A stretch of 64,000 nt of DNA, taken from Candidatus Melainabacteria bacterium 17Bon1m (GTDB taxonomy: Bacteria > Cyanobacteriota > Vampirovibrionia > Obscuribacterales > Obscuribacteraceae). The number at the start of each line of letters is the position of its first letter. Within the stretch, counting starts at the first letter, position 1. Below the pieces are notes generated by a model. That model did no database searches. It saw only the letters and a list, made by a program, of their open reading frames with translations, and had not been told where the DNA came from. Made by a program: the position numbers and the translations under genes. This document shows, in pieces, positions 14,972-30,783 of the stretch. Location: contig JAVLKG010000010.1 in assembly GCA_032128875.1 (NCBI GenBank), positions 96,001 through 160,000 on the forward strand, given 5' to 3'.

Positions 14972-17286
<2,315 letters not shown>

Positions 17287-17411
17287 TCGGGGCGTTAGAT
17301 TCCAGCCCTCACACGCTTGACAATTCGACCGGTAGTCTAAAGAAAGTTTACGAGGGTAAAGCCGTAAAATCCCCGACTGACGGGGTTTAGAGGTTTTTAT
17401 CCCTCAGTCTA

Positions 17412-17437
17412 GGAACCTTTGTAACTCTTGCCGGTCT
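17412..17437 (+). promoter_or_regulatory. ECF-sigma-type promoter GGAAC-N17-GTCT
   Basis: GGAAC CTTTGTAACTCTTGCCG GTCT; one of five same-spacing copies. Confidence 0.7.
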
Positions 17438-17459
17438 GATGGTGGGTAAGTCTTTCTTG

Positions 17460-19664
17460 ATGGACCCGATGAAGAGTGACCCAATAACCTTTGAGAAGGA
17501 AGACGAGTACGTCGTCGACTCGCGACCGCTTTGTCAGGGAATGCCTTTCGTCCTCACGGACGCAGCGCATCCGCGACTGATTTTGAAGCACGGAAGTCAC
17601 TTCATGGTGCTCGATCAAGAAGCACGAATCCCCGCTTGCAACACGCTGGGCTTCGGCTACTACAATTACGACACACGCTATTTGAGCGAGTGGAATTTCA
17701 CTGTTGACGGTGCCGAATTATCGCTGTTGTCGGCGGACGTGAAGCGCGGCTATGCCGGGAGTTTTCTGTACACAAACCCGCAGACCAACAGCCTCTCGCA
17801 GCAGAACCTCATGGTTCAGCGTCAAATCGTTTTATCCGATGTAGTCTCCGAGCGAATTGTTATTGAGAATTACAGTGCAAACGAGATTACGGTCGAATTT
17901 TGCATGAAGTATCAATCCGATTTCGCAGACATGTTCGAGGTTCGCGGAGTCAACCGTCAAGAGCGCGGAAAGCGCATGTTGCCTCGTAAGGACAAGGAAG
18001 GCAAGCGCCTTTTCCTGGCATATCGTGGACTCGATGACCGTTTACTCGAGACAATGATCGAATTTCGCGGCAGCGCACCCGACACTATCGTCGACGGTGA
18101 GGCGCGCTACAACTTGACCTTGCCACCACGGACACCGTGGTATCTGCAGATCTTCATGTACACAAGAATAGACGGTGAAGAACAATTCGCCGAGCGTCCT
18201 GAAATGGATTTTGCAAACTTGTTGGACGATGCGGACAAACGGTTTTCGCTATGGAGATCAAATGGCGCACAAATCATGACCGAAGACGAGATTGTGAACT
18301 TCGCAGTCGAAAGAGGTTTGCGAGACATCTACATATTGCGTCAACCAACTCCCAGGGGCATCGGCATTGCCGCGGGAATTCCCTGGTACTCGGCGCCTTT
18401 CGGTAGGGACAGCGCAATCACCGGCTGGCAAATGTTGCCTTACCGACCAGACCTTGCGCGCGAATGCATCGAATTGCTCGGCGCGTATCAGGGCACCAAA
18501 GTTGATGAATTTCGCGCCGAACGTCCGGGCAAAATTATGCACGAACTGCGCTTGGGTGAAATGGCTAGATTAGGCTCGATTCCGCATACTCCATATTACG
18601 GTACCGTGGATGCAACAGCGCTATGGTGCATGTTGGTGGCTCGCTATTTCCGATGGACAGGAGACTTGGCTTTTGCCACGGAGATATGGCCGAAGCTGGA
18701 GTTGGCTCTCAGTTGGCTCGACAGTGCCAGCGAGAAAACCGGCTACATATCATATATTCGTGAGAGTGCAGAAGGACTGGAAAACCAGGGCTGGAAAGAC
18801 TCCGGTAATTCAATTGGACACGAAAACGCAGAACTCGCCAAGCCTCCAATTTCTCTATGCGAGGTGCAAGGCTACTTGTATGCAGCGCGCCTGGCTATTG
18901 CCGAAATTGCATCCATACTCAAGAAAGACGAACTGGCAGAACGTTTGCATGCACAAGCGGCAAAGTTGAAGCGCGATTTCAAACGTGATTTTTGGATGCC
19001 AGAACACGAGTTTCCCGCTCTTGCATTAGATGGTGAAGGGAAGCAAGTGAAAGTGTTTAGCTCAAATGCTGGTCATTGTATTTGGTCGGGAATCTTAGAT
19101 GGCGAAATGGCACAGCGTGTTGCAGACCGCATGCTGGCACCTGATATGGACTCCGGCTGGGGTCTGCGAACTCTGTCGACGCAGGCGTCATACTACAATC
19201 CGATGAGCTACCACAACGGCTCTGTTTGGCCGCACGACAACGCGATCATACTCGAAGGTTTTCGAAGAATCGGGCGCATTCGTGACGCGCACTACCTTCT
19301 CAGCGCGATGGCCGCAGTCGCACAGCACCAACGAGATTTCCGCTTGCCTGAATTAGTTTGCGGATTCGAACGCACCAATTGGGGCAGCCCAATCGACTAC
19401 CCTGTGTCTTGCTCGCCGCAAGCATGGGCAGCCGGCAGCATTTTCCAGATGCTAAGCTCTTGTGTCAATTTCGTGCCGGATGCGCATAGAAAAACTCTGC
19501 GGATCGAGGAGCCTTGCCTGCCGGAATGGTTGGAAAGGGTGACCTTCCACAATCTCAAAGTCGGCAATGCCGAACTTGATATCGCATTTAGTGCACTAAA
19601 TGGACACACAAGCTGTCAGATTCTGAGAAAAAACGGCGACTTGAAAGTAATCATTGAAAACTGA
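17460..19664 (+). CDS. Amylo-alpha-1,6-glucosidase / glycogen debranching enzyme family protein
   Basis: SDFADMFEVRG, AAGIPWYSAPFGRDS, PGKIMHELR, YYGTVDAT, NQGWKDS, YHNGSVWPHD, CSPQAWAA. ORF opens at 17439, but that ATG abuts the promoter -10. Confidence 0.92.
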   Translation: MDPMKSDPITFEKEDEYVVDSRPLCQGMPFVLTDAAHPRLILKHGSHFMVLDQEARIPACNTLGFGYYNYDTRYLSEWNFTVDGAELSLLSADVKRGYAGSFLYTNPQTNSLSQQNLMVQRQIVLSDVVSERIVIENYSANEITVEFCMKYQSDFADMFEVRGVNRQERGKRMLPRKDKEGKRLFLAYRGLDDRLLETMIEFRGSAPDTIVDGEARYNLTLPPRTPWYLQIFMYTRIDGEEQFAERPEMDFANLLDDADKRFSLWRSNGAQIMTEDEIVNFAVERGLRDIYILRQPTPRGIGIAAGIPWYSAPFGRDSAITGWQMLPYRPDLARECIELLGAYQGTKVDEFRAERPGKIMHELRLGEMARLGSIPHTPYYGTVDATALWCMLVARYFRWTGDLAFATEIWPKLELALSWLDSASEKTGYISYIRESAEGLENQGWKDSGNSIGHENAELAKPPISLCEVQGYLYAARLAIAEIASILKKDELAERLHAQAAKLKRDFKRDFWMPEHEFPALALDGEGKQVKVFSSNAGHCIWSGILDGEMAQRVADRMLAPDMDSGWGLRTLSTQASYYNPMSYHNGSVWPHDNAIILEGFRRIGRIRDAHYLLSAMAAVAQHQRDFRLPELVCGFERTNWGSPIDYPVSCSPQAWAAGSIFQMLSSCVNFVPDAHRKTLRIEEPCLPEWLERVTFHNLKVGNAELDIAFSALNGHTSCQILRKNGDLKVIIEN

Positions 19665-19755
19665 ATCACGATCGTGATTCTGACTATGAAACTCAAAATA
19701 TCAATTTCACAAAACTAGAAACGGAAGCCACTAGATAGAAGAGGTGCTTTAAATC

Positions 19756-20805
19756 ATGCGTATCGCTCAACTTGCTCCACTAGCTGAAAGCGTTCCACCG
19801 CGGGGATATGGCGGCTCGGAGTTGGTCGTAAATCTCCTCACTGAAGAATTGGTAAAACGTGGACATGACGTCACGCTTTTTGCAACTGCAGATTCGCAAA
19901 CAGAAGGACGATTAATCGAATGCGCACCGGAAGGTTTGCGCGCATCAAGTATCGCGCCGACAAGATGGCACGCATACAACATCAAAGCTTTGATCAAGCT
20001 GGAAGAGATGCAAGGTCAGTTCGACATTATCCACAACCACATGGGATACGCGGCGCTTCCGGCGCTCAGCAAATTCCGCTGCCCTGTGGTGACTACTAAT
20101 CACAACCCGCTCTACGACTACTGCAAAGACATCTATTTTGCTTACGGTCAGATGCAGTTCATCTCAATTAGTGATGCTTACAAACGACTGAATTATCCAG
20201 ACAAAGTCAACTACATCACTACTGTGTACAACGGAATCAATCTGGCAGATTTTGCAATTGACGAGAAGGTGGAGCGTAACCATCTGTTATTCCTGGGCCG
20301 TCTTTGCCAAGACAAAGGCACAAAAGAAGCCATCGAAATCGCCCGCCGTTTGGGCTTGCCGATAAAACTAGCAGGCAAAGTTGATCGCAACGATGAACCT
20401 TATTTCAACGAGTTCATCAAGCCGATGTTGAGCGAACCAAATGTGGAATTCGTGGGTGAGGTTTCAACCGAACAAAAAAATGCGCTCTACAATTCCGCTA
20501 TCGCAACACTGTGCCCGATCAATTTCGAAGAGCCCTTCGGATTAGTTTTCTCCGAATCGCTTGCCTGTGGAACTCCTGTAATGGCTTTCCGCCGTGGCGC
20601 CGCTCCTGAAGTGATTTCGGATGGAGAGACCGGCGTTGTTGGAGAATCCATCGACGAACTAGTGGCACGCTTCGGAGAAATCAGCAGCATTACACAACAA
20701 ACCTGTCGCGACAGGGTCGCCCGCCTTTTCAGCAAAGAGAAGATGACCGACTCGTACTTGAAAGCGTTCGAGCTGGCAATTTCGAACAGCATGGTTAGGA
20801 GATAA
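19756..20805 (+). CDS. Glycosyltransferase family 4
   Basis: MRIAQLAPLAESVPPRGYGGSE and EEPFGLVFSESLACGTPV. Confidence 0.93.
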   Translation: MRIAQLAPLAESVPPRGYGGSELVVNLLTEELVKRGHDVTLFATADSQTEGRLIECAPEGLRASSIAPTRWHAYNIKALIKLEEMQGQFDIIHNHMGYAALPALSKFRCPVVTTNHNPLYDYCKDIYFAYGQMQFISISDAYKRLNYPDKVNYITTVYNGINLADFAIDEKVERNHLLFLGRLCQDKGTKEAIEIARRLGLPIKLAGKVDRNDEPYFNEFIKPMLSEPNVEFVGEVSTEQKNALYNSAIATLCPINFEEPFGLVFSESLACGTPVMAFRRGAAPEVISDGETGVVGESIDELVARFGEISSITQQTCRDRVARLFSKEKMTDSYLKAFELAISNSMVRR

Positions 20806-20820
20806 CGACTAAACCTTATT

Positions 20821-20929
20821 ATAAGGTCGACGCCATGCGTCGACCGCACAGAAGGGCGGTGCATGGCATCGCCCCTATGTCTCTTTTAAGGACATCGCCT
20901 CTATGTCTTTTCTGGCAGGCGTCGTCTCT
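20821..20929. repeat. REP doublet plus two half copies between convergent genes
   Basis: GGTCGACGCCATGCGTCGACC; GGGCGGTGCATGGCATCGCCCCTAT; CATCGCCTCTAT; GCGTCGTCTCTAC. Confidence 0.78.
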
Positions 20930-20942
20930 ACAAAAACGCTGC

Positions 20943-22715
20943 TTATCTCGCTATCGCTTTGATGGCTGATTCGTAGTTTGCTGATGTCGACTCACCGATG
21001 ATGGTGCTCGAAACCTGACCGCTCGGAGAGACAAATACGACTGTCGGAATTGGTCCTACTTTGAATTGTTCTACCAGTGCGTCAGAGCCAGGGGCATCGA
21101 CGTCAATTCGTTGGAAGTCGACGCGGTCTCCATACGTAATGAATAGACGAGTCAGAGCGTCGTTCATTGTCTTGCACTGGTCTGCCCAATTTGCGTAGAA
21201 CGCATAAACACGTCCTTTGCTGAACGACGGCAGAGCAGCAGTCGGAGTATTACCCAACCAAGAATTGCCTAAGCCAAGCAAGTATGTGTTGAACGCTTTA
21301 GACTGATCTCCACCTCTATTCATGCGCATTGCGCGCCGGAACATACGACCGGCCAAGTCGGGCTGACCGCCCTTCATATAAGCTTGTCCCAGCAGTCCAA
21401 TGACATTTGCATCATCGGGTCGTTGGGCCCTCAGTGACTCTAACTGCGAAATTGCCGCCGCGGTGTTACCCGAATCAATAAGTTGAACTTGTTGCTCCAA
21501 CCCAGCTGTGTTGATCGGCATTCTCGGTCCGCCACCGTATCCGCCACCATACTGACCGCCACCGCCGGGATTCATCGCTGTTCCCATCGGACGACGTCCG
21601 TGCCGCCTGCCTACTTTCGCAGTAAGCCAGGAAGAGATGACGCGGAAGTTCTGGTCGCGAGGACCAGGGTCTTGCGTTTGCGCTTCTTCAAAGATCAAAT
21701 GTTCTCCCGGCACAGCAAAAAATGACTTGTCTTTTGCAGCAACGTCGTTAAACAATTCCCATGTGCCTTCTGGCTTGACGAGCTGGTCGCCGTTGCCCTG
21801 CACAAAGAGCACGGGCATATCGGTAACTTTCTTGGCTGCTTCGTGATTCATATTCATGAAGTCTTGGAATTGAATCAATTCTTGCGGAGACAAATTCAGC
21901 TTAGCAAGCGGATCTCCTTGCCACTGGGATTTGAGCTTGGCGTTTTGCGTTGCTTGATTGACAATATCTTGTCCAACGTTGGCGACATTGAATCCACTCA
22001 AGAGATTGAGGAAGACTTTCATGCTCGTCTTGCCTTGATTAAATCGCTCTCCAGCAGGAACCGATGAAATCAAGCCATCAATCAAATCCGGATACATCGA
22101 CGCTGCGCGCAAGGCGATTGCGCCCCCCATCGATTCTCCCAATACATATACTGGAATGCCAGGATTGGCTGCACGAATAGACTCACAAGTTTGTTTGATA
22201 TCTGCAAGGCAGTCGTCAAAGTTCACTTTGCCCTTACCGCCTGCCTTCATCCATGAGCCAAAACCACGCACGTCAATGGCATAGACCGCTATGCCCCTTT
22301 TTGATTGCTCGGTGCCGAAGAATTCATAGGAGTTGCTTTGCAATCCCAGACCGTGGATACAAAGGATGGCAGCTATCGGTTTTTCATCTGGATTGACCCA
22401 AGATCTGCATGGTGCAGCTTGCCTGGATGCAGAACTGGTCTGGTTATAGAGCAAGGAAGTCGGGTCGCTTGAATAGGGGCCACCTGCAGGCTGTGTAGGT
22501 GTCTGCCCTTGCTGGATTGTTTGATTAACGCCGTGCAAAACATTCTTTTGCGCGTTGTTGAGAATCATCTGCCCGGCTTGTTTCAGGAACGATGGAGCCG
22601 CCGGTGGAGAAGACTGCTGCTTGACTTGTGCCATCGATGGAGCCGGCAAAACGCCCACCAAAATCGATACTGCAGTAATTCCACACAATACGAACTTATT
22701 GGAAAGTCTGGTCAT
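20943..22715 (-). CDS. Exported alpha/beta hydrolase (lysophospholipase-like) fused to TPR and thioredoxin-like domains
   Basis: Signal peptide; HGLG, DVRGFG, GESMGG; TPR-like LLGQAYMKGG; C-terminal FYANWADQC...IPTVVFV. Confidence 0.82.
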   Translation of the reverse strand: MTRLSNKFVLCGITAVSILVGVLPAPSMAQVKQQSSPPAAPSFLKQAGQMILNNAQKNVLHGVNQTIQQGQTPTQPAGGPYSSDPTSLLYNQTSSASRQAAPCRSWVNPDEKPIAAILCIHGLGLQSNSYEFFGTEQSKRGIAVYAIDVRGFGSWMKAGGKGKVNFDDCLADIKQTCESIRAANPGIPVYVLGESMGGAIALRAASMYPDLIDGLISSVPAGERFNQGKTSMKVFLNLLSGFNVANVGQDIVNQATQNAKLKSQWQGDPLAKLNLSPQELIQFQDFMNMNHEAAKKVTDMPVLFVQGNGDQLVKPEGTWELFNDVAAKDKSFFAVPGEHLIFEEAQTQDPGPRDQNFRVISSWLTAKVGRRHGRRPMGTAMNPGGGGQYGGGYGGGPRMPINTAGLEQQVQLIDSGNTAAAISQLESLRAQRPDDANVIGLLGQAYMKGGQPDLAGRMFRRAMRMNRGGDQSKAFNTYLLGLGNSWLGNTPTAALPSFSKGRVYAFYANWADQCKTMNDALTRLFITYGDRVDFQRIDVDAPGSDALVEQFKVGPIPTVVFVSPSGQVSSTIIGESTSANYESAIKAIAR

Positions 22716-22875
22716 GTTCAGCTCTCAGAAAGGTACTCGGTATGAGGGCTAAGTTTACCAAAATTGCCCATTTCAAGCCCGTTCGGCATAGTGGAAATCA
22801 AGTTGTGGGCTCGGCTAAAATAGACTGCTCGCAGAGCCCGCCGCCTTTCGCATACCTCGGTATGAAGGAGAGAAA

Positions 22876-23826
22876 ATGCACACGCAGACAAAATCAGCCG
22901 ACCTCAAACTTTACCGGGAATATGATGCACCGCTTAGTGCAGTTTGGGATGCCTGGAGCAAGCCTGAGCAAATTGCAGAATGGTGGGGTCCGCGTGGATT
23001 TACGACGACAACTCACAGCAGAGATTTGAAAACTGGTGGTACCTGGAAGTACACCATGCATGGTCCTGACGAAGTCGACTACGAGAATTTCACGAAATAC
23101 CTAGAAGTGGAAAACCACAAAAAATTGGTGTACGACCATGGCGGTACAGAAACCTCCAATGCGCTCTTCCGAGTAACGGTCCTCTTTTCGCAAGAGAATG
23201 GCAAAACAAAAATGGATATGACGATGACCTTCCCAAATCCAGAAGCAGCCGAAACTTCTGCACGCTTTATTAAGAAAGCAGGTGGGGATGCCACCTGGGA
23301 TCGCCTGGCAGAATTCCTCGAACAGAAACTCAAGAGCAAAGAAAAATTTGTCATCAATCGTTCTTTCAACGCGCCGCTCGAAAAGATGTTTCAGCTCTGG
23401 TCTGACCCGGCAGAAGTGCAGAAGTGGGCTTGTCCAACCGGTTTTTCAATGACTTACAATTACGTCGATATAAAGGATGGCGGTAAGTCGTTTTACACCA
23501 TGTCTGATGGCAAGGACACAAAAATGCATGGTCGCTGCCAGTACCTCGAAGTTCGAAAGCCCGATCGCATTGTATATACGCAACAATTCTGCGATGAGAA
23601 TGAAAAGATTGTTCGTCATCCGATGGCACCGACCTGGCCGGAGAGCATGAAGACGACTGTTCAACTGACACCGGAAGGTGTTGATAGAACGCGCGTAACG
23701 CTAACGTGGGAGCAAGACGGAAATTGGACTGCTGAAGAGTTGGAAACATTCAAAAACGCTCGTGCAGGCATGACGCAGGGATGGACCGGCTCATTCGATA
23801 AACTCGAAGAGTACATCGGTTCGTAG
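22876..23826 (+). CDS. Tandem SRPBCC/AHSA1 domain protein
   Basis: Two repeats: REYDAPLSAVWDAWS...WWGPRGF and RSFNAPLEKMFQLWS...GWTGSFDKL. Confidence 0.9.
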   Translation: MHTQTKSADLKLYREYDAPLSAVWDAWSKPEQIAEWWGPRGFTTTTHSRDLKTGGTWKYTMHGPDEVDYENFTKYLEVENHKKLVYDHGGTETSNALFRVTVLFSQENGKTKMDMTMTFPNPEAAETSARFIKKAGGDATWDRLAEFLEQKLKSKEKFVINRSFNAPLEKMFQLWSDPAEVQKWACPTGFSMTYNYVDIKDGGKSFYTMSDGKDTKMHGRCQYLEVRKPDRIVYTQQFCDENEKIVRHPMAPTWPESMKTTVQLTPEGVDRTRVTLTWEQDGNWTAEELETFKNARAGMTQGWTGSFDKLEEYIGS

Positions 23827-23922
23827 AGGAGGCACATGTGCCTCTCTGTCAGGGAGCCGCATGCGGCTCCCCTACTTGACGCATGCGGCTCCTCTACAAG
23901 AAGGGCGCGTGCAACGCCCCCA
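23823..23922. repeat. REP cluster whose GTAG supplies the upstream gene's TAG stop
   Basis: GTAGAGGAGGCACATGTGCCTCTC; GGGAGCCGCATGCGGCTCCCCTAC; GCATGCGGCTCCTCTAC; GGGCGCGTGCAACGCCCCCAC. Confidence 0.8.
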
Positions 23923-23935
23923 CACCGCGAGCCTA

Positions 23936-26179
23936 TTACTTAAGTAACTTCTTGTGCAGATCGACTTTTGCGTCGAGAATGCCTTCCCACAGGTCGCCTA
24001 CTTGCTCGAGACGTTCTGGGACATTCCTAATGTTGAAGTCGGTCGGATAAATGTCTTCCAGTTCGTTCCACGAAATCGGAAGAGAAACATTAGCCATATC
24101 CGTGGCACGCACTGAATATGGTGGCGGCAATGTCTTATGCCGAGCATTCATATTGAAATCAAAGAACACCCTTCCAGTGCGCTTTTTGACAGCCCAATCG
24201 ATTGTTACTTCCTCCGGTCGCATCTTAGCTACGTGGGAAGCGATAGTACTGGCAAGCTGACGCACCGCATCGTTATCAACGTTTCTCACAATTGGAATGT
24301 AGATGTGCAAACCGGTCTTACCAGAGGTTTTGACAAACGAATTTAACTCAAGGTTATCCAGCATCTCTTTGAGCAAGAGCGCCAACTTTCTCGTCTTTGC
24401 AAACCCTTTTCGATGCAACTCCGGCTCGGCGTTTTCTTTTTCTTTTCCGCTGTAGAGATAGGGGTCGAGATCAAGAACCATAAAGTCGGGATAATTCAAA
24501 ATAGAACTTTCAATGTTTTCGACAGAACCTTTTACTTTCTTAGAAATCTTTGCCCCGTCAGGCTCCGCATCAATGCGGCTATGCACGGCGTGAAGTTCAA
24601 GTGATGCAACTTGCCCGCACCAGATCAAAGTCGATAGATTGTTGCAGAGCAAATATTCTTCGTCTGCGTTCGCATGCTCTGAAAAATACTCGATGGTTTC
24701 TACAAATGGTGGCAGCCCTTTTTCCCAATGCTTTTGGAAAAACTTTTGCCCGTCGGTACCGTTCGGATAACGAATCAAAGTGAAAGGACGTCCGTGCGCA
24801 AACCGTAAAAGCGGATCAGAAACCTGAATCAGGTAATTGATGTAGTCGCGCTTAGTTGCAGGCTTCGCACTTCTTGGCTTACCAGGAAAAAGTATTTTGT
24901 TCAAACTCGTAAGTTTGATAATGTTTGCTTCTACATCAAGATTGAGCTCATCCTTCTTGTTGTCTAGCTGCGCAAGCAAATCATCTCGCAGCGCGGTCGT
25001 TTTCGTTACACTCGATTTGTTTTTCTTTCGATTAATTGGCACAACTTCTGCAACTTTCTTCGTTGGCTTTTTCGCAGCTTCTCCCATAGATGATACCTCT
25101 GAAATTGGCACAACAACTTCCGGTCGTGCTTCGCTTGGCTTCTTATCTGTGCGCACTTGAAGGAAAACAGGCATGCGCAGTTTGTTATCCATTGTCCATT
25201 CGGCATACTTAATTTCGACAACCATCTCTGGTTTGAGCCATGAGGCGATTGCCTTAGCCATTGGGCGGACACTAAAGGGGCAGGTCGAAGTTTTCAAAGG
25301 CTGCATAACCTTGAAAAGTTTTTCGCGAGTCGAATCGTTAAAACCAGTACCTACCGAACCAGCATAGACAAGCTGGTCATCAGAGTTGATGACACCCAAG
25401 ACGAGGGCACCAAAGGAGTCTTCGCGCGAACCTTTACCTTCTGTGTAGCCACAGACGAGAAATTCTGAAGTCTTCGCCGCTTTGAGTTTCAACCAAGTAG
25501 GAACACGTTTTCCAGGCAAATAGAGACTGTCAACTTTTTTTGCGATCACGCCTTCCAAGCCGTTTTCCAGGCAAGCAAGAAAAGCCTTGTTTCCATCCGC
25601 ACCAAGGTCATCGACTCGCCTGACGTCATTCGACTCAACAAGATATCGTTTAAGCAACGCCTTTCGTTCTGTCAGAGGTTTGGCGATGGTCTTCTTTCCA
25701 TCCACCGATAAAATGTCGAAGACATAAAAACGTATTGGAATATGTTTTTTAGAGCGGTCAAGCTTACCGCGACCACGCAATCCAGACGCCTGCTGAAGAA
25801 GTTGAAACGATGTGCGTCCCTTCTCATCAAACGCTACGATTTCGCCATCCAAAACAAGGTCGTTCTTGCTTTTTTCCAACGATTCGACGAGCTCCGGATA
25901 ACGACTAGTAAGGTCCAATCCACGTCGTGACAAGATTTTCACATCGCCGCCGCTCACATATGCAATAGCCCTGATACCATCGAACTTTGGCTCGAAGACC
26001 CATCCTTCTTTGGAAAATGGTTCTTCCGCCATGGAGGCGAGCATGGGCGGAATGGGCTCGAGCTGACGCTTGCGAGCTACGCGTTTTTTATCAGGCGATT
26101 TTTGTCCAGACCGCTGGGGCGCTGGTGAGGCATTGACTTTCGCCTCGGCGCTGCGCGGTTTGGTTGGCTTTTTTGACAT
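23936..26179 (-). CDS. ligD: NHEJ DNA ligase D (ligase + primase-polymerase, no phosphoesterase domain)
   Basis: EPKFDGIRA, LDGEIV, EGVIAK, WLKLK; C-terminal RYPNG, FFQKH, DLDP, KTSGKTGLHI. Confidence 0.95.
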   Translation of the reverse strand: MSKKPTKPRSAEAKVNASPAPQRSGQKSPDKKRVARKRQLEPIPPMLASMAEEPFSKEGWVFEPKFDGIRAIAYVSGGDVKILSRRGLDLTSRYPELVESLEKSKNDLVLDGEIVAFDEKGRTSFQLLQQASGLRGRGKLDRSKKHIPIRFYVFDILSVDGKKTIAKPLTERKALLKRYLVESNDVRRVDDLGADGNKAFLACLENGLEGVIAKKVDSLYLPGKRVPTWLKLKAAKTSEFLVCGYTEGKGSREDSFGALVLGVINSDDQLVYAGSVGTGFNDSTREKLFKVMQPLKTSTCPFSVRPMAKAIASWLKPEMVVEIKYAEWTMDNKLRMPVFLQVRTDKKPSEARPEVVVPISEVSSMGEAAKKPTKKVAEVVPINRKKNKSSVTKTTALRDDLLAQLDNKKDELNLDVEANIIKLTSLNKILFPGKPRSAKPATKRDYINYLIQVSDPLLRFAHGRPFTLIRYPNGTDGQKFFQKHWEKGLPPFVETIEYFSEHANADEEYLLCNNLSTLIWCGQVASLELHAVHSRIDAEPDGAKISKKVKGSVENIESSILNYPDFMVLDLDPYLYSGKEKENAEPELHRKGFAKTRKLALLLKEMLDNLELNSFVKTSGKTGLHIYIPIVRNVDNDAVRQLASTIASHVAKMRPEEVTIDWAVKKRTGRVFFDFNMNARHKTLPPPYSVRATDMANVSLPISWNELEDIYPTDFNIRNVPERLEQVGDLWEGILDAKVDLHKKLLK

Positions 26180-26235
26180 ATCACTTGCCTTGAGTCTGGA
26201 ATCAAGCTAAATGCCCACTCAATTAGCTGTGGGTG

Positions 26236-26261
26236 AGACGCCCGTGTACCTTACTTGTTCC
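26236..26261 (-). promoter_or_regulatory. ECF-sigma-type promoter GGAAC-N17-GTCT for ligD
   Basis: Minus strand GGAAC AAGTAAGGTACACGGGC GTCT. Confidence 0.72.
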
Positions 26262-26286
26262 ATTAGAGTTTGTTTGCGAAAGTCTG

Positions 26287-26312
26287 GGAACTACGCCAAT
26301 TCCACCCCGTCC
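26287..26312 (+). promoter_or_regulatory. ECF-sigma-type promoter GGAAC-N17-GTCC for ku
   Basis: GGAAC TACGCCAATTCCACCCC GTCC. Confidence 0.72.
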
Positions 26313-26341
26313 AACCGACTGAGTTTCCAGGAGAAATTGTC

Positions 26342-27343
26342 ATGCCACGAGCAATGTGGAGCGGAGTTATCGGTTTTGGAATGGTCAGCATTCCTATAAA
26401 ACTGTACGCAGCAACCGAAAGCCGGAACGTAAGTTTTCACCAACTTCATAGTGTCTGCCAAACTCGCATCAAAGAAGTGCGTTGGTGCCCTACCTGCGAC
26501 CGAGAAGTGCCGTGGGAAGAGGTGCAAAAAGGTTTTGAATACTCCAAAGGCGATTACGTTATGCTCGAGGATGAAGACTTCAAAAAGCTTCCGATTCCAA
26601 GCAAGGATACGATTGACGTATCGTCATTTTGTACGGTCGAAGAAGTCGACCCTGTGTACTTTGAAAAACACTATTATCTAGAACCTGAGAAAAACGGCAA
26701 GAGACCATTTGATCTATTCGTGCGCGCTCTTATCGAGAAAAATATGCTGGGCATTGCCAGTATTACACTGAGAACCAAAGAAAGGCTCTGCGTGCTGCGC
26801 CCTGTCGGCTCGCACCTAATGATGTCCACGTTACTTTATCCAGACGAGCTGCGAATTGATCCGTCTGAGGATCTGCCAGAGCACAAAGTCACTAAGCAAG
26901 AATTGGCGATGGCAACCAACCTCATAGATTTGCTGACGGAGGATTTCGAACCGAAGAAATATGAGGACAGATATCGTGCCGCGTTGATGGAAGTCATTGA
27001 AGCGAAGCTTGAAGGTCAGCCAGTCAAACAAGAGAAGCATCGCGCTGCTCAAGGCGAAGTTGTAGACCTTTTGGAAGCTCTGAAAAACAGTGTCAGCAAC
27101 GTAAAATCTGGAGGAAAGAAAGCAGCGAGAGGCACAGATACAGAAGAATCGGCCGACGAAGAAGAAAACGTAGTGCCGCTGAAGCGCGGCGCGAAAAAAA
27201 GCGGCACAAGAAAGACTCCCGCGAAATCTGCGGCGCGTGCGCACAAGGCATCAGGCATCGGGCGCATAGCTAAGACAAAGACAGCCACCAAAAAGAGCTC
27301 AAAAACCAGCGCCAAATCTAAATCGAAGAAGCGTTCGGCTTAA
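26342..27343 (+). CDS. ku: NHEJ Ku protein with basic C-terminal tail
   Basis: MPRAMWSGVIGFGMVSIPIKLY, VQKGFEY, YFEKHYYLEP, VVDLLEALKNS; GGAGA RBS before ATG 26342. Confidence 0.96.
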   Translation: MPRAMWSGVIGFGMVSIPIKLYAATESRNVSFHQLHSVCQTRIKEVRWCPTCDREVPWEEVQKGFEYSKGDYVMLEDEDFKKLPIPSKDTIDVSSFCTVEEVDPVYFEKHYYLEPEKNGKRPFDLFVRALIEKNMLGIASITLRTKERLCVLRPVGSHLMMSTLLYPDELRIDPSEDLPEHKVTKQELAMATNLIDLLTEDFEPKKYEDRYRAALMEVIEAKLEGQPVKQEKHRAAQGEVVDLLEALKNSVSNVKSGGKKAARGTDTEESADEEENVVPLKRGAKKSGTRKTPAKSAARAHKASGIGRIAKTKTATKKSSKTSAKSKSKKRSA

Positions 27344-27363
27344 GGTTCCATTTATGGAAAATG

Positions 27364-27389
27364 GGAACTTTTTGCTAGAGAGTGTGTCT
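27364..27389 (+). promoter_or_regulatory. ECF-sigma-type promoter GGAAC-N17-GTCT for the small ORF
   Basis: GGAAC TTTTTGCTAGAGAGTGT GTCT. Confidence 0.7.
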
Positions 27390-27414
27390 TCAAGTAAACC
27401 AACGGAGTTGTGTT

Positions 27415-27546
27415 ATGCAACCTTTATTCCGAAAGATAGCATTAGCGGTCGCATCTGCCATGGTCCTTTCGCTCGCAACCGAAATAATCAAAGTGCTGGA
27501 GCGCAAGCTCGGCAATAAAGATGAGGGCGCGAAAGCCAGAGCATAG
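27415..27546 (+). CDS. Putative 43-aa small membrane-associated protein
   Basis: GGAG RBS; MQPLFRKIALAVASAMVLSLATEIIKVLERKLGNKDEGAKARA*; has its own candidate promoter and terminator. Confidence 0.62.
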   Translation: MQPLFRKIALAVASAMVLSLATEIIKVLERKLGNKDEGAKARA

Positions 27547-27588
27547 ATAGCGCTAAACGGCGGTCCGTGAACTTAACCGGACAACCAA

Positions 27589-27634
27589 GACCACAGAGGT
27601 CAGGGCATCACGCTCGACCTCTGCGGTCGTTTTT
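27589..27634 (+). terminator. Intrinsic terminator-like hairpin
   Basis: GACCACAGAGGTC...GACCTCTGCGGTC followed by GTTTTT. Confidence 0.55.
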
Positions 27635-27721
27635 ACAGGGTTAACAATCCAACGGCAGCCCAGTCTCTAACCGGGCGATACCGCGGTAGCGGCGAATTTT
27701 CCATTCGACTAAAAGTTTGAG

Positions 27722-27747
27722 GGAACTTACTCACGTAGAGAAAGTCC
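27722..27747 (+). promoter_or_regulatory. ECF-sigma-type promoter GGAAC-N17-GTCC for the cupin gene
   Basis: GGAAC TTACTCACGTAGAGAAA GTCC. Confidence 0.7.
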
Positions 27748-27851
27748 ATCCAAAAGCTGCCTACCGGTGTAAGCCGACTAAGAGTTGTAGCTCCGAAGGC
27801 CATTTCAATTGAGTGCGTTGTTTGAACAGTTTTTCAACAGAGGATCGACCA

Positions 27852-28250
27852 ATGGGTGATACTACAGTCAAAAAGATTGATTCCGCGTTTTCTCCAAAAG
27901 GAGATATGGGTCAAAAGTATCTTGCATCGGGGAAGCATGTGTCCATGCGCTTGTGGGAGAAAGAACCACCGACCAACGGTAATGGCAAAGCTGATACCAA
28001 GCGTGAATATGAAACTGTCGGATACGTAATCAGCGGTAAGGCGACTCTCCATTGCGAAGGGCAAACAATCAATTTGGAGCAAGGCAATTCATGGACGGTG
28101 CCCGCTAACGCCAGCCACCACTACGAAATTTTAGAAGAGTTTACTGCAGTAGAAGCTACCTCTCCGCCCGCCGAAGTGCATGGACGCGATAGCTGCTGCA
28201 ACGAGAAAGAGTTGGGCGAGATTACACTTAATTTCCAGGCAGGATCGTAA
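27852..28250 (+). CDS. Cupin domain protein
   Basis: YETVGYVISGKATL...GNSWTVPANASHHY; GAGG RBS before ATG 27852. Confidence 0.88.
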   Translation: MGDTTVKKIDSAFSPKGDMGQKYLASGKHVSMRLWEKEPPTNGNGKADTKREYETVGYVISGKATLHCEGQTINLEQGNSWTVPANASHHYEILEEFTAVEATSPPAEVHGRDSCCNEKELGEITLNFQAGS

Positions 28251-28260
28251 CCTAAACCTC

Positions 28261-30783
28261 CTAGGGTTTAGCGGGACCTTCTGGTTTTGCCGGAGCCGCA
28301 GCCGGATTTTCAGTCTGCCCTGGTACCGCCACCGGTGCTGCTGCAGGCGTCGCTGCCGGCGCAGCGGTTGATGTAGCAGATGGAGCTGGCGATGGCGTAA
28401 CCGATTGCGCTGGTGCCGGAGCAGCTGCTGGTGCTGGGGCAGCAGACGGAGCTGGCGCAGACTTTCGCATCTCCTGATCTAGATATTTTTTGATCTCATC
28501 GGGTGGAACGACCGGCATATTGGTTTCAATTTTAGGATCAAGCGACAAAGCCTTGGCTTTGAACGCTGCCGCTCGCGCTGCATTCTTTTCTGCTCTAGCG
28601 ATGAAATACTGCAAGTAATTCACTTGAGCTTCATCCCCACCTAACTTACTTGCAGTCTCGACGGCTTCTTTGGCTTCGTCAATTCTATTCAATTCAAGCG
28701 CCGCACGAGCGAACAATAGTTGTCCTTCGGCAGTGGGAAGCTCTTTCATACTTCTTTCCATCAGCTTATAAGCTTGCGGAATGAGACTGGGCAACCTGCT
28801 ACCCAGATAAGCCGTAACGATCGGCTCGACGTATTGTTTGTTGCGTTGGTCTTGTACAAAACCCTGCTGCAACTCATAAATGGAAGGTACATATTCTTTG
28901 TTGTTGAGCAAATGCATGCCCATCAAATAGTGAAGTTGTGCCGTATCACCGAGCACGGCTCTTGCCTCATCGACGAGTTGCTTCACGCGCCCGTAGTCGC
29001 CCTGGCGGACTAATGCGTCTGCCAACTGAGCCTGGCACTGCGCAACGATAATGGAGGAAGCTTTGTTTTCTTGCGCGAGTTTGAGAGCAGTTTCAAACTC
29101 CTTAAAAGCCTCGGTGTTCGCTCCTTCATACTGCTGAATTCTTCCCAGCAACAAGTGAGCAAGCGGCGATTGGGGATCAAGTTTTAGAGCCTCGTCTGCT
29201 TCCTTTTTCGCATCCGGGGTCTTCTTCTCGTTCAAAGCAATGAAGCCGAGCTTGGCGTGAGCGCGTGCACTCTGAGAGTTCGTTTTAAGGACTTCTTTCC
29301 ATAGTGCCGCTTCAGAAGACCAGGCGAGCGCGCGCCAATTCGACAATCCAGCCAACCCGACAAAGAGAATAGCGAGCGAAGCTGCGACTTGTTTGAAGGA
29401 AACGATTGCCATTTTGGAGATCAAATAACCAATGACAATCGAAAGTCCTATTAGAGAAATGTAATAGCGAGCATCAGACACAACCTCGCCTTGTGGGAGC
29501 ACAAAGTCAGGGAACGGACCGATTAACGTGAGGGTGAGACCCAAGACTAGGGGCGGAACAGATCGGAATTTATAAGCAAGGAAAGCGATACCGGCAAAGG
29601 CAGCTACACCCAACAAAGCAAGAGGATCAGTAAAACCTGTTGCCACTACCAGTGGTGGTTCAACAGAAAGACCGCCTGGCACTGCAAAACAACGCAAGAA
29701 GTATGTGACGAAGGCCTTGAACTGAGATGCCAAATATTGATCAAACGGCAACGTCGCAAGACCGATGCCGTTATTGAGGGTGGTCGGAATTCCTCTGGTA
29801 ATAACGTAGATTATCGCGGCTGAAACCATGCCAATAATTGTCAGATCGGACCAGCGCAATTTCACGAACTCGTCGAAGCTCATATCCGCAGGCTTTGCGA
29901 GGATAGCAAGACAGGACAGCGCTATAGGCAAAGTTATCGCGGCGGGGCCGGAGAGCACAGCCATGACAACGCACGCCAACATAGCTGTATAGAGAAGCAC
30001 CATATTCAGTGGCTTGCGCGCAACAAATCCTGCAAAGAACAACAACATTGCCAGAACGTAGTTCGCACCTACCAATGCCATTTCGCGCCCAGGAATATAA
30101 GAAATAATCTCGGATGCTAGAGGATGACAGGCAAGCATACCGGCGGAGGCAAAGGCGAAATGCTCAGGTTTCACAGCGATGCGGTTCTCGAATCTCCAAT
30201 ACCTGCCGAGTTGAAACACGAGAAAGAACAAATAAAGACAAGTGAGCGCATGTAAAGTCAGGTTGACCATGTGAAACCAAATCAGACTTGTTGATTTCAG
30301 ATCTAAGGCCAGACCTACATTTGTCCACAAATTCGAAAGAGGCGTAGACAGTCCACTGCCAACCAAACGAGACCAGAATTCGTCACTGTTGGCGCCCATT
30401 TTGAGCGGAGTCAATATCAACTGGTCATTGAGAACGAACTGACCGAACAAACCGGTGATATGCGAAAAAATTGCCAAGACGCAAACGATAGTAGCGGCAA
30501 TTGAAATTGTTTTCCAATCAATCGCATCTACATCAGCCAGGGCATCCGCGTCTGATGAGGACGAAGCAGTCGCTCTGGCCGATTTGCTCTTGGGCTTCGG
30601 AACGCTCGGAACCCGTGTCGGTCTTGCGTCCCACATACGAAACATGTTCTCGTTCTTGAGCTCGCGCTTGCCTTCACCGGCATCGGAAGAGGATTTACCA
30701 TCGGTAGAAGTGACAGCAGACTCAGCCTTCTCTGTTGTGTTCTCACCAGCCTGCTTCTGCTTCTTATTCTTCGCTTTGCTCAT
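28261..30783 (-). CDS. Multi-pass membrane protein with C-terminal TPRs (TMTC-like / GT-C fold)
   Basis: FHMVNLTLHAL, HPLASEIISYIPGR and DARYYIS; about 11 hydrophobic segments, then TPRs and an Ala/Pro/Ser/Thr tail. Confidence 0.75.
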   Translation of the reverse strand: MSKAKNKKQKQAGENTTEKAESAVTSTDGKSSSDAGEGKRELKNENMFRMWDARPTRVPSVPKPKSKSARATASSSSDADALADVDAIDWKTISIAATIVCVLAIFSHITGLFGQFVLNDQLILTPLKMGANSDEFWSRLVGSGLSTPLSNLWTNVGLALDLKSTSLIWFHMVNLTLHALTCLYLFFLVFQLGRYWRFENRIAVKPEHFAFASAGMLACHPLASEIISYIPGREMALVGANYVLAMLLFFAGFVARKPLNMVLLYTAMLACVVMAVLSGPAAITLPIALSCLAILAKPADMSFDEFVKLRWSDLTIIGMVSAAIIYVITRGIPTTLNNGIGLATLPFDQYLASQFKAFVTYFLRCFAVPGGLSVEPPLVVATGFTDPLALLGVAAFAGIAFLAYKFRSVPPLVLGLTLTLIGPFPDFVLPQGEVVSDARYYISLIGLSIVIGYLISKMAIVSFKQVAASLAILFVGLAGLSNWRALAWSSEAALWKEVLKTNSQSARAHAKLGFIALNEKKTPDAKKEADEALKLDPQSPLAHLLLGRIQQYEGANTEAFKEFETALKLAQENKASSIIVAQCQAQLADALVRQGDYGRVKQLVDEARAVLGDTAQLHYLMGMHLLNNKEYVPSIYELQQGFVQDQRNKQYVEPIVTAYLGSRLPSLIPQAYKLMERSMKELPTAEGQLLFARAALELNRIDEAKEAVETASKLGGDEAQVNYLQYFIARAEKNAARAAAFKAKALSLDPKIETNMPVVPPDEIKKYLDQEMRKSAPAPSAAPAPAAAPAPAQSVTPSPAPSATSTAAPAATPAAAPVAVPGQTENPAAAPAKPEGPAKP

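Follow-up and report, generated by a model that had tools for sequence, protein, structure and literature searches.

Which regulator acts on a cluster of genes in which DNA end joining stands beside glycogen debranching? The question is raised by a 64,000 nt stretch of the genome of Candidatus Melainabacteria bacterium 17Bon1m (contig JAVLKG010000010.1, positions 96,001 to 160,000), which we call the window. Here the bipartite motif GGAAC-N17-GTCY is found upstream of ku, of ligD, of a gene for a glycogen-debranching-type enzyme (GDE) followed by a GT4 glycosyltransferase gene, of an open reading frame (ORF) of 43 amino acids (aa), and of a cupin gene. An original prediction, made from the letters of the window, had assigned these five sites to a stress or dormancy regulon under an extracytoplasmic function (ECF) sigma factor. 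Our analysis makes it likely that the five sites are genuine ECF (group 4) promoters within a stress regulon of about 130-160 promoters, with the sigma factor most likely among five paralogues. Vampirovibrionia (Melainabacteria), and the Obscuribacterales especially, are uncultured, non-photosynthetic relatives of cyanobacteria and are known almost only from metagenome bins. A search of the literature on Melainabacteria ECF sigma factors and on Obscuribacter sigma factors and regulons returned nothing relevant.

The motif is enriched upstream of genes

The window contains six matches to GGAAC-N17-GTCY, compared to 0.70 expected from 100 dinucleotide-preserving shuffles (standard deviation 0.80, maximum 3); none of the 100 shuffles reached six. 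Five of the matches are intergenic and directed at GDE/GT4, ligD, ku, the 43-aa ORF and the cupin gene. Their predicted coordinates and strands were all verified in the window sequence (Table 1), and the identities of the debranching enzyme, GT4, LigD, Ku and the cupin are backed by Pfam, with the 43-aa ORF remaining without a family. The sixth match is antisense within a TPR gene. No plus-strand gene follows it, the next gene beyond the TPR gene being also on the minus strand; it therefore fits the background and is probably a chance match. A simple sigma70 scan did not detect sigma70-like promoters in the five intergenic regions. The Rfam scan of the window gave three tRNAs only and no RNA element at the motif sites.

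We extended the counts to the window's own genome (G000; 7.55 Mb, 35 contigs, 93.2% complete), with 5,556 genes called by a crude ORF-based model and spanning 84% of its length. With a spacer of 17 nt we counted the strict motif 159 times; with spacers of N12-N16 and N18-N22 the counts are 44-79. Intergenic sites number 108 at N17 (68 facing a gene start within 250 nt), 40 at N18 (27 facing a gene start) and 5-18 at the nine other spacers (3-9 facing a gene start). For the relaxed motif GGAAC-N17-GTC we found 292 sites; 185 of them are intergenic, and 117 have the sense orientation and a gene start no more than 300 nt away. The corresponding numbers are 136, 70 and 50 for N18, and 150, 26 and 10.4 for the mean of eight control spacers. 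The excess of intergenic sites over the controls is about 160 for N17 and 45 for N18, and among spacers N11-N23 the enrichment is limited to N17 and, more weakly, N18. Relative to genes, 117 of the N17 sites are sense-oriented and 34 antisense-only, and the distance between motif and start codon peaks at 0-100 nt. The predicted enrichment upstream of genes was thus found genome-wide, and it is specific to spacer, strand and position (117 vs 10.4). The spacer of exactly 17 nt held as the main class only; N18 forms a genuine minor class (70 vs about 26 intergenic sites).

Unbiased word tables returned the same two elements. GTC is the trimer after GGAAC-N17 at 185 sites (27.3 in controls), and GGAAC is the pentamer before N17-GTCY at 108 sites (10.5 in controls). 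The base after GTC is free (T>A>C~G, no A-run), so that the -10 element is GTC plus any base and not GTCY as had been proposed. GGAAC is often followed by T and GTC often preceded by C; a position weight matrix of the flanks revealed no further conserved positions beyond the weak T preference after GGAAC. Motif sites also cluster: 68 of 255 have a neighbor within 1 kb, where random placement in intergenic DNA gives 26.5 ± 6.6. Five sites in 10 kb, the density seen in the window, are thus typical for the genome.

The half-sites are kept in relatives

Footprinting in genomes of the same genus (genus g1; all counts include the window's own genome) showed both half-sites kept and the spacers diverged at all orthologous sites that we examined. 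For ku, 10/10 same-genus loci have the motif, always with N17 and at -52 to -63; it is also found in 4/11 loci from other genera. The divergent ligD motif is present in 10/10 same-genus loci and in one locus of another genus (L011). For the 43-aa ORF and the cupin gene the motif was found in 9/9 loci each, at -51 to -53 for the former and at a distance to the ATG varying from -56 to -135 for the latter. The GDE comparison covered 16 of 25 loci (left out were one locus that lies where its contig ends and eight that are paralogous or distant). The motif is present at -26 to -28 in all nine loci with orthologues of at least 88% identity, and no motif was seen in the seven more distant or paralogous loci examined. 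Outside the window, the Dps promoter (8/8) and the PolX promoter (6/6) are kept in the same-genus loci. Conservation upstream of orthologues, a second expectation of the original prediction, was therefore seen for all seven genes.

Counts across 41 genomes place the excess in a narrow lineage. In genus g1, N17 sites outnumber those with the N14 control spacer by 292 vs 157 (G000), 250 vs 104 (G011) and 211 vs 104 (G005). Other genera of the family show a modest excess, and other families of the class show none. N14 was the control for these between-genome counts, and a reversed-pattern control, which differs in base composition, was dropped. The lineage profile is a description and not a test, because the genomes are related, partly incomplete metagenome-assembled genomes (MAGs).

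A bipartite word might instead be bound by a dimeric transcription factor, or might form a structural element or a repeat. We consider this very improbable. The halves of the motif do not repeat each other, whether directly or inverted, and the orientation bias described above is strong. Among the 185 N17 sites the 17 nt spacers show no relation in sequence (the most similar pair shares 14/17 positions), and the sites are therefore not a repeat family. At the cupin gene the form of the motif is constant while its distance to the ATG varies, as expected of a promoter with a variable leader. Spacing and words also match the published ECF consensus (PMC1312014). From these features we infer that transcription starts at the sites.

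The motif is of a standard ECF type

The closest match in form is E. coli sigmaE. According to Rhodius et al. (PMC1312014), its elements are GGAACTT(TT) and (T/C)GGTCAAAA, and the preferred distance from GGAACTT to TCAAA is 16 nt. A promoter GGAACTT-N16-TCAAA with the -10 element (T/C)GGTCAAAA equals GGAAC-N17-GTC in -35 word and geometry. The T preferred after GGAAC also agrees with the sigmaE -35 element, and many putative targets in our genome have envelope functions (AsmA/YhdP-like, MlaE, HtpX, PBP1, M23, a PDZ protein). The -10 element differs from TCAAA, since no AAA follows GTC and T is preferred instead. A further difference is that the list of targets here adds genes for nonhomologous end joining (NHEJ), trehalose and glycogen metabolism, Dps and Usp.

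The alphaproteobacterial general stress factor EcfG shares the -35 element and the spacing: GGAAC-N16-CGTT compares to GGAAC-N16-(C)GTC here, one base apart in the -10 element. Paralogous sigma factors share one motif there too. In Sphingopyxis granuli, EcfG-dependent genes include ku-ligD, a mechanosensitive channel and efflux components (PMC7083833), and the target list here likewise has ku/ligD, Dps-type protectants, channels and small membrane proteins. Unlike in EcfG systems, CGTT is absent among the top -10 words and GTC is the enriched one. None of the 24 Sigma70_r4_2 matches of the genome has a PhyR-like architecture (sigma-like N-terminus and C-terminal receiver), those with a receiver being LuxR types with an N-terminal REC domain; NepR was not searched for. 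The candidate sigma factors here, from a different phylum, are RpoE/SigW-like by family scores.

Promoters of Bacillus subtilis SigW (TGAAAC...CGTA) and actinobacterial SigR (GGAAT...GTT) both differ from our motif. Given the match to sigmaE and EcfG, the motif type is standard for ECF sigma factors and the proposed GTCY element is not a new one. Of the suggestion that this lineage has its own regulon with its own -10 element, the genus-conserved regulon stands; the motif, with the geometry of sigmaE, is no lineage-specific invention.

Five RpoE-like paralogues are the candidate sigma factors

About ten of the 24 Sigma70_r4_2 matches are true ECF sigma factors, while the remainder comprises response regulators of the LuxR type and two group-3-like sigma factors. 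The search agreed with the original prediction that the sigma factor is not encoded in the window. The gene at C2:406949-407572 is the sole ECF gene with the motif upstream (GGAAC-N18-GTCA, 55 nt upstream); within 400 nt upstream of the other ECF genes no motif was found. The expected autoregulatory copy thus exists for one ECF gene, in the N18 form, and is lacking for the others. A motif site 1.9 kb upstream of a second ECF gene was rejected as its promoter, as an opposite-strand gene lies between. Beside C2:406949-407572, a divergent N18 site faces metK. The upstream motif is kept in 20/66 related loci.

The C2:406949-407572 protein scores best against the RpoE and SigW models, below their cut-offs (144.2 bits for the RpoE equivalog TIGR02939, cut-off 236.15), and aligns to structures of E. 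coli sigmaE. It has four further paralogues in the genome with 45-49% identity, at C1:337854-338429, C3:923120-923710, C9:113130-113711 and C10:218804-219379. All five share the recognition helix GTVKSRI(A/S)RAR and have nearly identical -35 helices. Like RpoE-type proteins, to which they align best, they retain S172 and R176 of E. coli sigmaE. These two residues read the two G of GGAAC (PMC1540707). Judged by sequence, the sigma factor acting on the window promoters is most likely one or more of these five RpoE-like paralogues. As all five window promoters are N17, and the base that follows GGAAC is not the same at N17 as at N18 sites, no single paralogue can be assigned.

A different ECF sigma factor, outside the five paralogues or missing from the 93.2% complete assembly of 35 contigs, might instead read the promoters. 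Most ECF groups use AAC and CGT- or GTC-like elements, so that the motif alone does not identify the sigma factor, and other ECF proteins also have S and R at the key helix positions (e.g., C3:829771, VGTVRSRLHYGR). Since the motif was not found within 400 nt upstream of any other ECF gene, and the candidate element in front of the SigW-like C3:829771 is a different one (TGAAC-N16-CGTA), we regard this explanation as improbable.

The gene following C2:406949-407572 encodes a zf-HC2 anti-sigma factor (L022:4073-4987; G000:C2:407572-408486) with three tandem HxxxCxxC motifs (HLSGCNDC, HLKECPDC, HLTDCQGC) and then one transmembrane segment. The triple arrangement is kept in 36/43 related loci examined across Obscuribacterales; a triple zinc anti-sigma domain is, to our knowledge, undescribed. 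The order of a sigma gene and a zf-HC2 anti-sigma gene is that of SigW/RsiW of Bacillus subtilis and of SigR/RsrA of actinobacteria, and matches to SigW (5wuq, E 8.9e-25) and to RsrA were obtained. The three repeats combined with one transmembrane segment distinguish the anti-sigma factor from RsiW and RsrA. It also differs from the sigmaE partner, as RseA_N scored 21 bits, below the cut-off of 24. A speculative and rather unlikely extension is that five RpoE-like ECF sigma factors with one specificity run a stress/dormancy programme of about 150 promoters, and that the triple-zinc anti-sigma factor holds several of them, possibly different paralogues, and releases them jointly on thiol or redox stress. 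If true, this would be a multi-sigma master switch, which is not described for any ECF system.

The four orphan paralogues have no neighbor with a recognisable anti-sigma domain, and the genes downstream of them belong to no Pfam family or to unrelated ones. Behind the orphan C1:337854-338429 lie a PAS histidine kinase gene and a gene for a response regulator of 196 aa, whose C-terminal tail is uncharacterised. The 77 nt gap after the sigma gene contains a putative N17 promoter for the kinase gene itself, GGAACTTT-N17-GTC (L187:7205-7936, L093:1-2138; G000:C1:337704-340653). Directly downstream of another orphan lies an ORF of 2,860 aa without Pfam family (L231:3609-12188; G000:C9:114108-122690).

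The two spacer classes may reflect at least two regulons of real ECF promoters: the autoregulated sigma factor with the zinc anti-sigma partner would read N18/GGAAC(A/C), and one or more orphan paralogues would read N17/GGAACT. The N18 class would then be rich in envelope and housekeeping genes, and the N17/GGAACT class would hold all five window promoters and most stress genes. Indeed, T follows GGAAC in 50/113 N17 targets vs 7/46 N18 targets, A being commonest at N18 (21/46), and in the promoter of the autoregulated sigma gene T never follows GGAAC in the 20 loci keeping the motif. The N18 list includes MetK, PBP1, OEP, HlyD, M23, HtpX, DAGK, CarA and trigger factor. The N17 promoter behind the orphan C1:337854-338429 fits this division as well. 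Family genomes with at least two paralogue matches tend to a higher N17/N14 ratio than those with one, although this trend is not a valid test among related, incomplete MAGs. Stress and envelope genes alike, however, occur in both spacer classes (BON, gly-zipper and DSP phosphatase genes are in both), and the recognition helices hardly differ. A wobble of 1 nt is also normal for a single ECF sigma factor, 15-19 nt being reported for sigmaE (PMC1312014). We therefore treat a division into two or more regulons as a tentative possibility.

The candidate regulon joins stress genes and envelope genes

Genes counted as candidate targets if they lay -100 to +250 nt downstream of an N17 or N18 site in intergenic DNA, and the resulting 159 genes were scanned with Pfam. 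DNA repair is represented by Ku, LigD, a separate LigD 3'-phosphoesterase, PolX and a bifunctional nuclease, and carbohydrate metabolism by GDE, GT4, OtsA (GT20) and a nucleotidyl transferase. Protectants comprise Dps/ferritin, Usp, two BON proteins, four hemerythrins, Pyrid_ox_like, MscL, two gly-zipper, two DUF2188 and SRPBCC proteins. Signalling targets are PP2C, three DSP phosphatases, several histidine kinases and GGDEF proteins, KaiB and two group-2-like sigma70 genes. The envelope group consists of AsmA/YhdP-like, MlaE, four HlyD and OEP, PBP1, M23, an amidase, two DPBB, HtpX, DAGK and TonB proteins. Three patatins are lipase targets, and about 50 of the 159 proteins have no Pfam family. 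The motif precedes both BON genes and four of the six hemerythrin genes of the genome.

By its annotation, the list reads as a general-stress/dormancy programme mixed with envelope maintenance. The stress or dormancy regulon that had been proposed was borne out insofar as NHEJ genes are joined to storage-carbohydrate genes; the many envelope genes were not part of that proposal, and the list may therefore be the union of several paralogous ECF regulons.

In the model that we favor, RNA polymerase with a bound ECF (group 4) sigma factor would read GGAAC and GTC with an optimal gap of 17 nt and 18 nt tolerated, in a regulon conserved in this Obscuribacteraceae genus and weaker in neighboring genera. 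On an inducing signal, release of the sigma factor would jointly induce end-joining repair (Ku, LigD, LigD phosphoesterase, PolX), enzymes for storage and compatible-solute carbohydrates (GDE/GT4, OtsA, nucleotidyl transferase) and protectants (Dps, Usp, BON proteins, hemerythrins, MscL). Induced along with them would be small membrane proteins, for instance the 43-aa ORF product, the two group-2-like sigma factors and envelope functions. The programme would be a general-stress/dormancy response working like alphaproteobacterial EcfG or E. coli sigmaE.

Several points weigh against this model. Due to the crude ORF-model gene calls, the figures for intergenic position and distance are approximate. 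By the control spacers, about 26/185 N17 and 26/70 N18 intergenic sites are background (about 1 in 6 and 1 in 3), and some listed targets are therefore false. Since many targets are family-less, envelope or housekeeping proteins (MetK, CarA, trigger factor, PBP1), general stress is a reading of the list and not a measured enrichment, BON and hemerythrin apart. Regarding the sigma factor, only one of about ten ECF genes has the motif upstream, in the minor N18 form with A after GGAAC, and 46/66 related loci lack it upstream of the C2:406949-407572 orthologue; several of these show a sigma70-like TGnTAnnAT instead. This sigma factor is conserved class-wide, but an excess of the motif is seen within the family only. 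The only runs found to contain the locus are four from one sample, labelled as RNA; over window 17000-28500 their contigs measure 28-38 kb, and depth is even through genes and spacers alike. These RNA-Seq-labelled runs look like DNA libraries and are, because of the long contigs of flat depth, uninformative on starts, strands and levels.

The two group-2-like sigma70 genes (regions 1.2, 2, 3 and 4) lie at L143 (G000:C4:237610-238629) and L157:11601-12662 (G000:C6); their place behind the ECF motif suggests a sigma cascade. A KaiB-domain gene stands behind an N17 motif in this non-photosynthetic lineage (L109:9344-9655; G000:C2). Of 88 motif sites without a called gene, 19 precede an ORF of 20-59 aa with a Shine-Dalgarno-like word, a loose criterion; several of these ORFs resemble membrane peptides. 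Hydrophobic ORFs of 27-48 aa lie behind the sites G000:C8:150234-150258(-), C2:54079-54103(+) and C1:151936-151961(-). The regulon may hold several more small membrane proteins akin to the 43-aa one.

The system seems to be of an ordinary kind, an ECF regulon with a textbook motif, which is undescribed for this lineage. Its value lies in annotation and as an experimental handle rather than in a new mechanism. A promoter motif that can be read from the sequence and is conserved in the genus would provide a first regulatory map for Obscuribacterales. It predicts joint switching of end-joining repair, trehalose and glycogen metabolism, Dps, hemerythrins, small proteins and two further sigma factors. 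Such co-regulation points to desiccation, starvation or dormancy physiology, and the motif gives context to dozens of family-less genes, including that of the conserved 43-aa protein.

Features of the window

Table 1. Genes, predicted promoters and hairpins around the motif sites of the window.
Feature	Position	Strand	Evidence or remark
Terminator-like hairpin just 5' of the GDE promoter	17367-17388		Hairpin scan
Predicted ECF-type promoter of the GDE/GT4 unit, GGAAC-N17-GTCT	17412..17437	+	Motif match, kept in relatives
Glycogen-debranching-type glycoside hydrolase, GDE (GDE_N_bis + GDE_C/MGH1-like)	17439..19664	+	Pfam
GT4 glycosyltransferase	19756..20805	+	Pfam
LigD (ATP-dependent ligase and primase-polymerase domains)	23936..26179	-	Pfam
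Predicted ECF-type promoter of ligD, back-to-back with the ku promoter	26236..26261	-	Motif match
Predicted ECF-type promoter of ku	26287..26312	+	Motif match
Ku	26342..27343	+	Pfam PF02735, E 4e-49
Predicted ECF-type promoter of the 43-aa ORF	27364..27389	+	Motif match
43-aa hydrophobic small protein	27415..27546	+	Peptide conserved in relatives
Terminator-like hairpin and T-run closing the small-ORF unit	27615..27640	+	Hairpin scan
Predicted ECF-type promoter of the cupin gene	27722..27747	+	Motif match
Small cupin protein	27852..28250	+	Pfam Cupin_2/Cupin_3
Sixth GGAAC-N17-GTCY match, probably chance	30599..30624	+	Antisense within TPR gene 28261-30783 (-)

The ATG at 17439, the start of the longest GDE ORF, directly adjoins or overlaps the -10 element (GGTCTGATG), and orthologues do not share it. 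The real start is therefore probably the ATG at 17460 or 17469. The GT4 gene has no GGAAC-N17-GTC motif of its own and is probably co-transcribed with GDE.

The 43-aa peptide has 68-95% identity in 8/8 same-genus loci extending that far, and the hairpin sequence 3' of it is also visible in relatives. By this conservation the ORF is a real gene. Its product has no Pfam family and no paralogue in the genome, and its atlas matches are at most 0.86 and without family.

No intra-window repeat was found at the contig break points; these coincide with short palindromes that occur genome-wide. The spacers between convergent genes at 20810-20890 and 23815-23885 carry short GC-rich palindromic hairpins with CATG or GCATGC centres. 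The palindromes recur 49 and 127 times, respectively, in the genome (blastn-short), and assembly contigs of public runs branch there. They look like repetitive extragenic palindromic (REP)-type elements.

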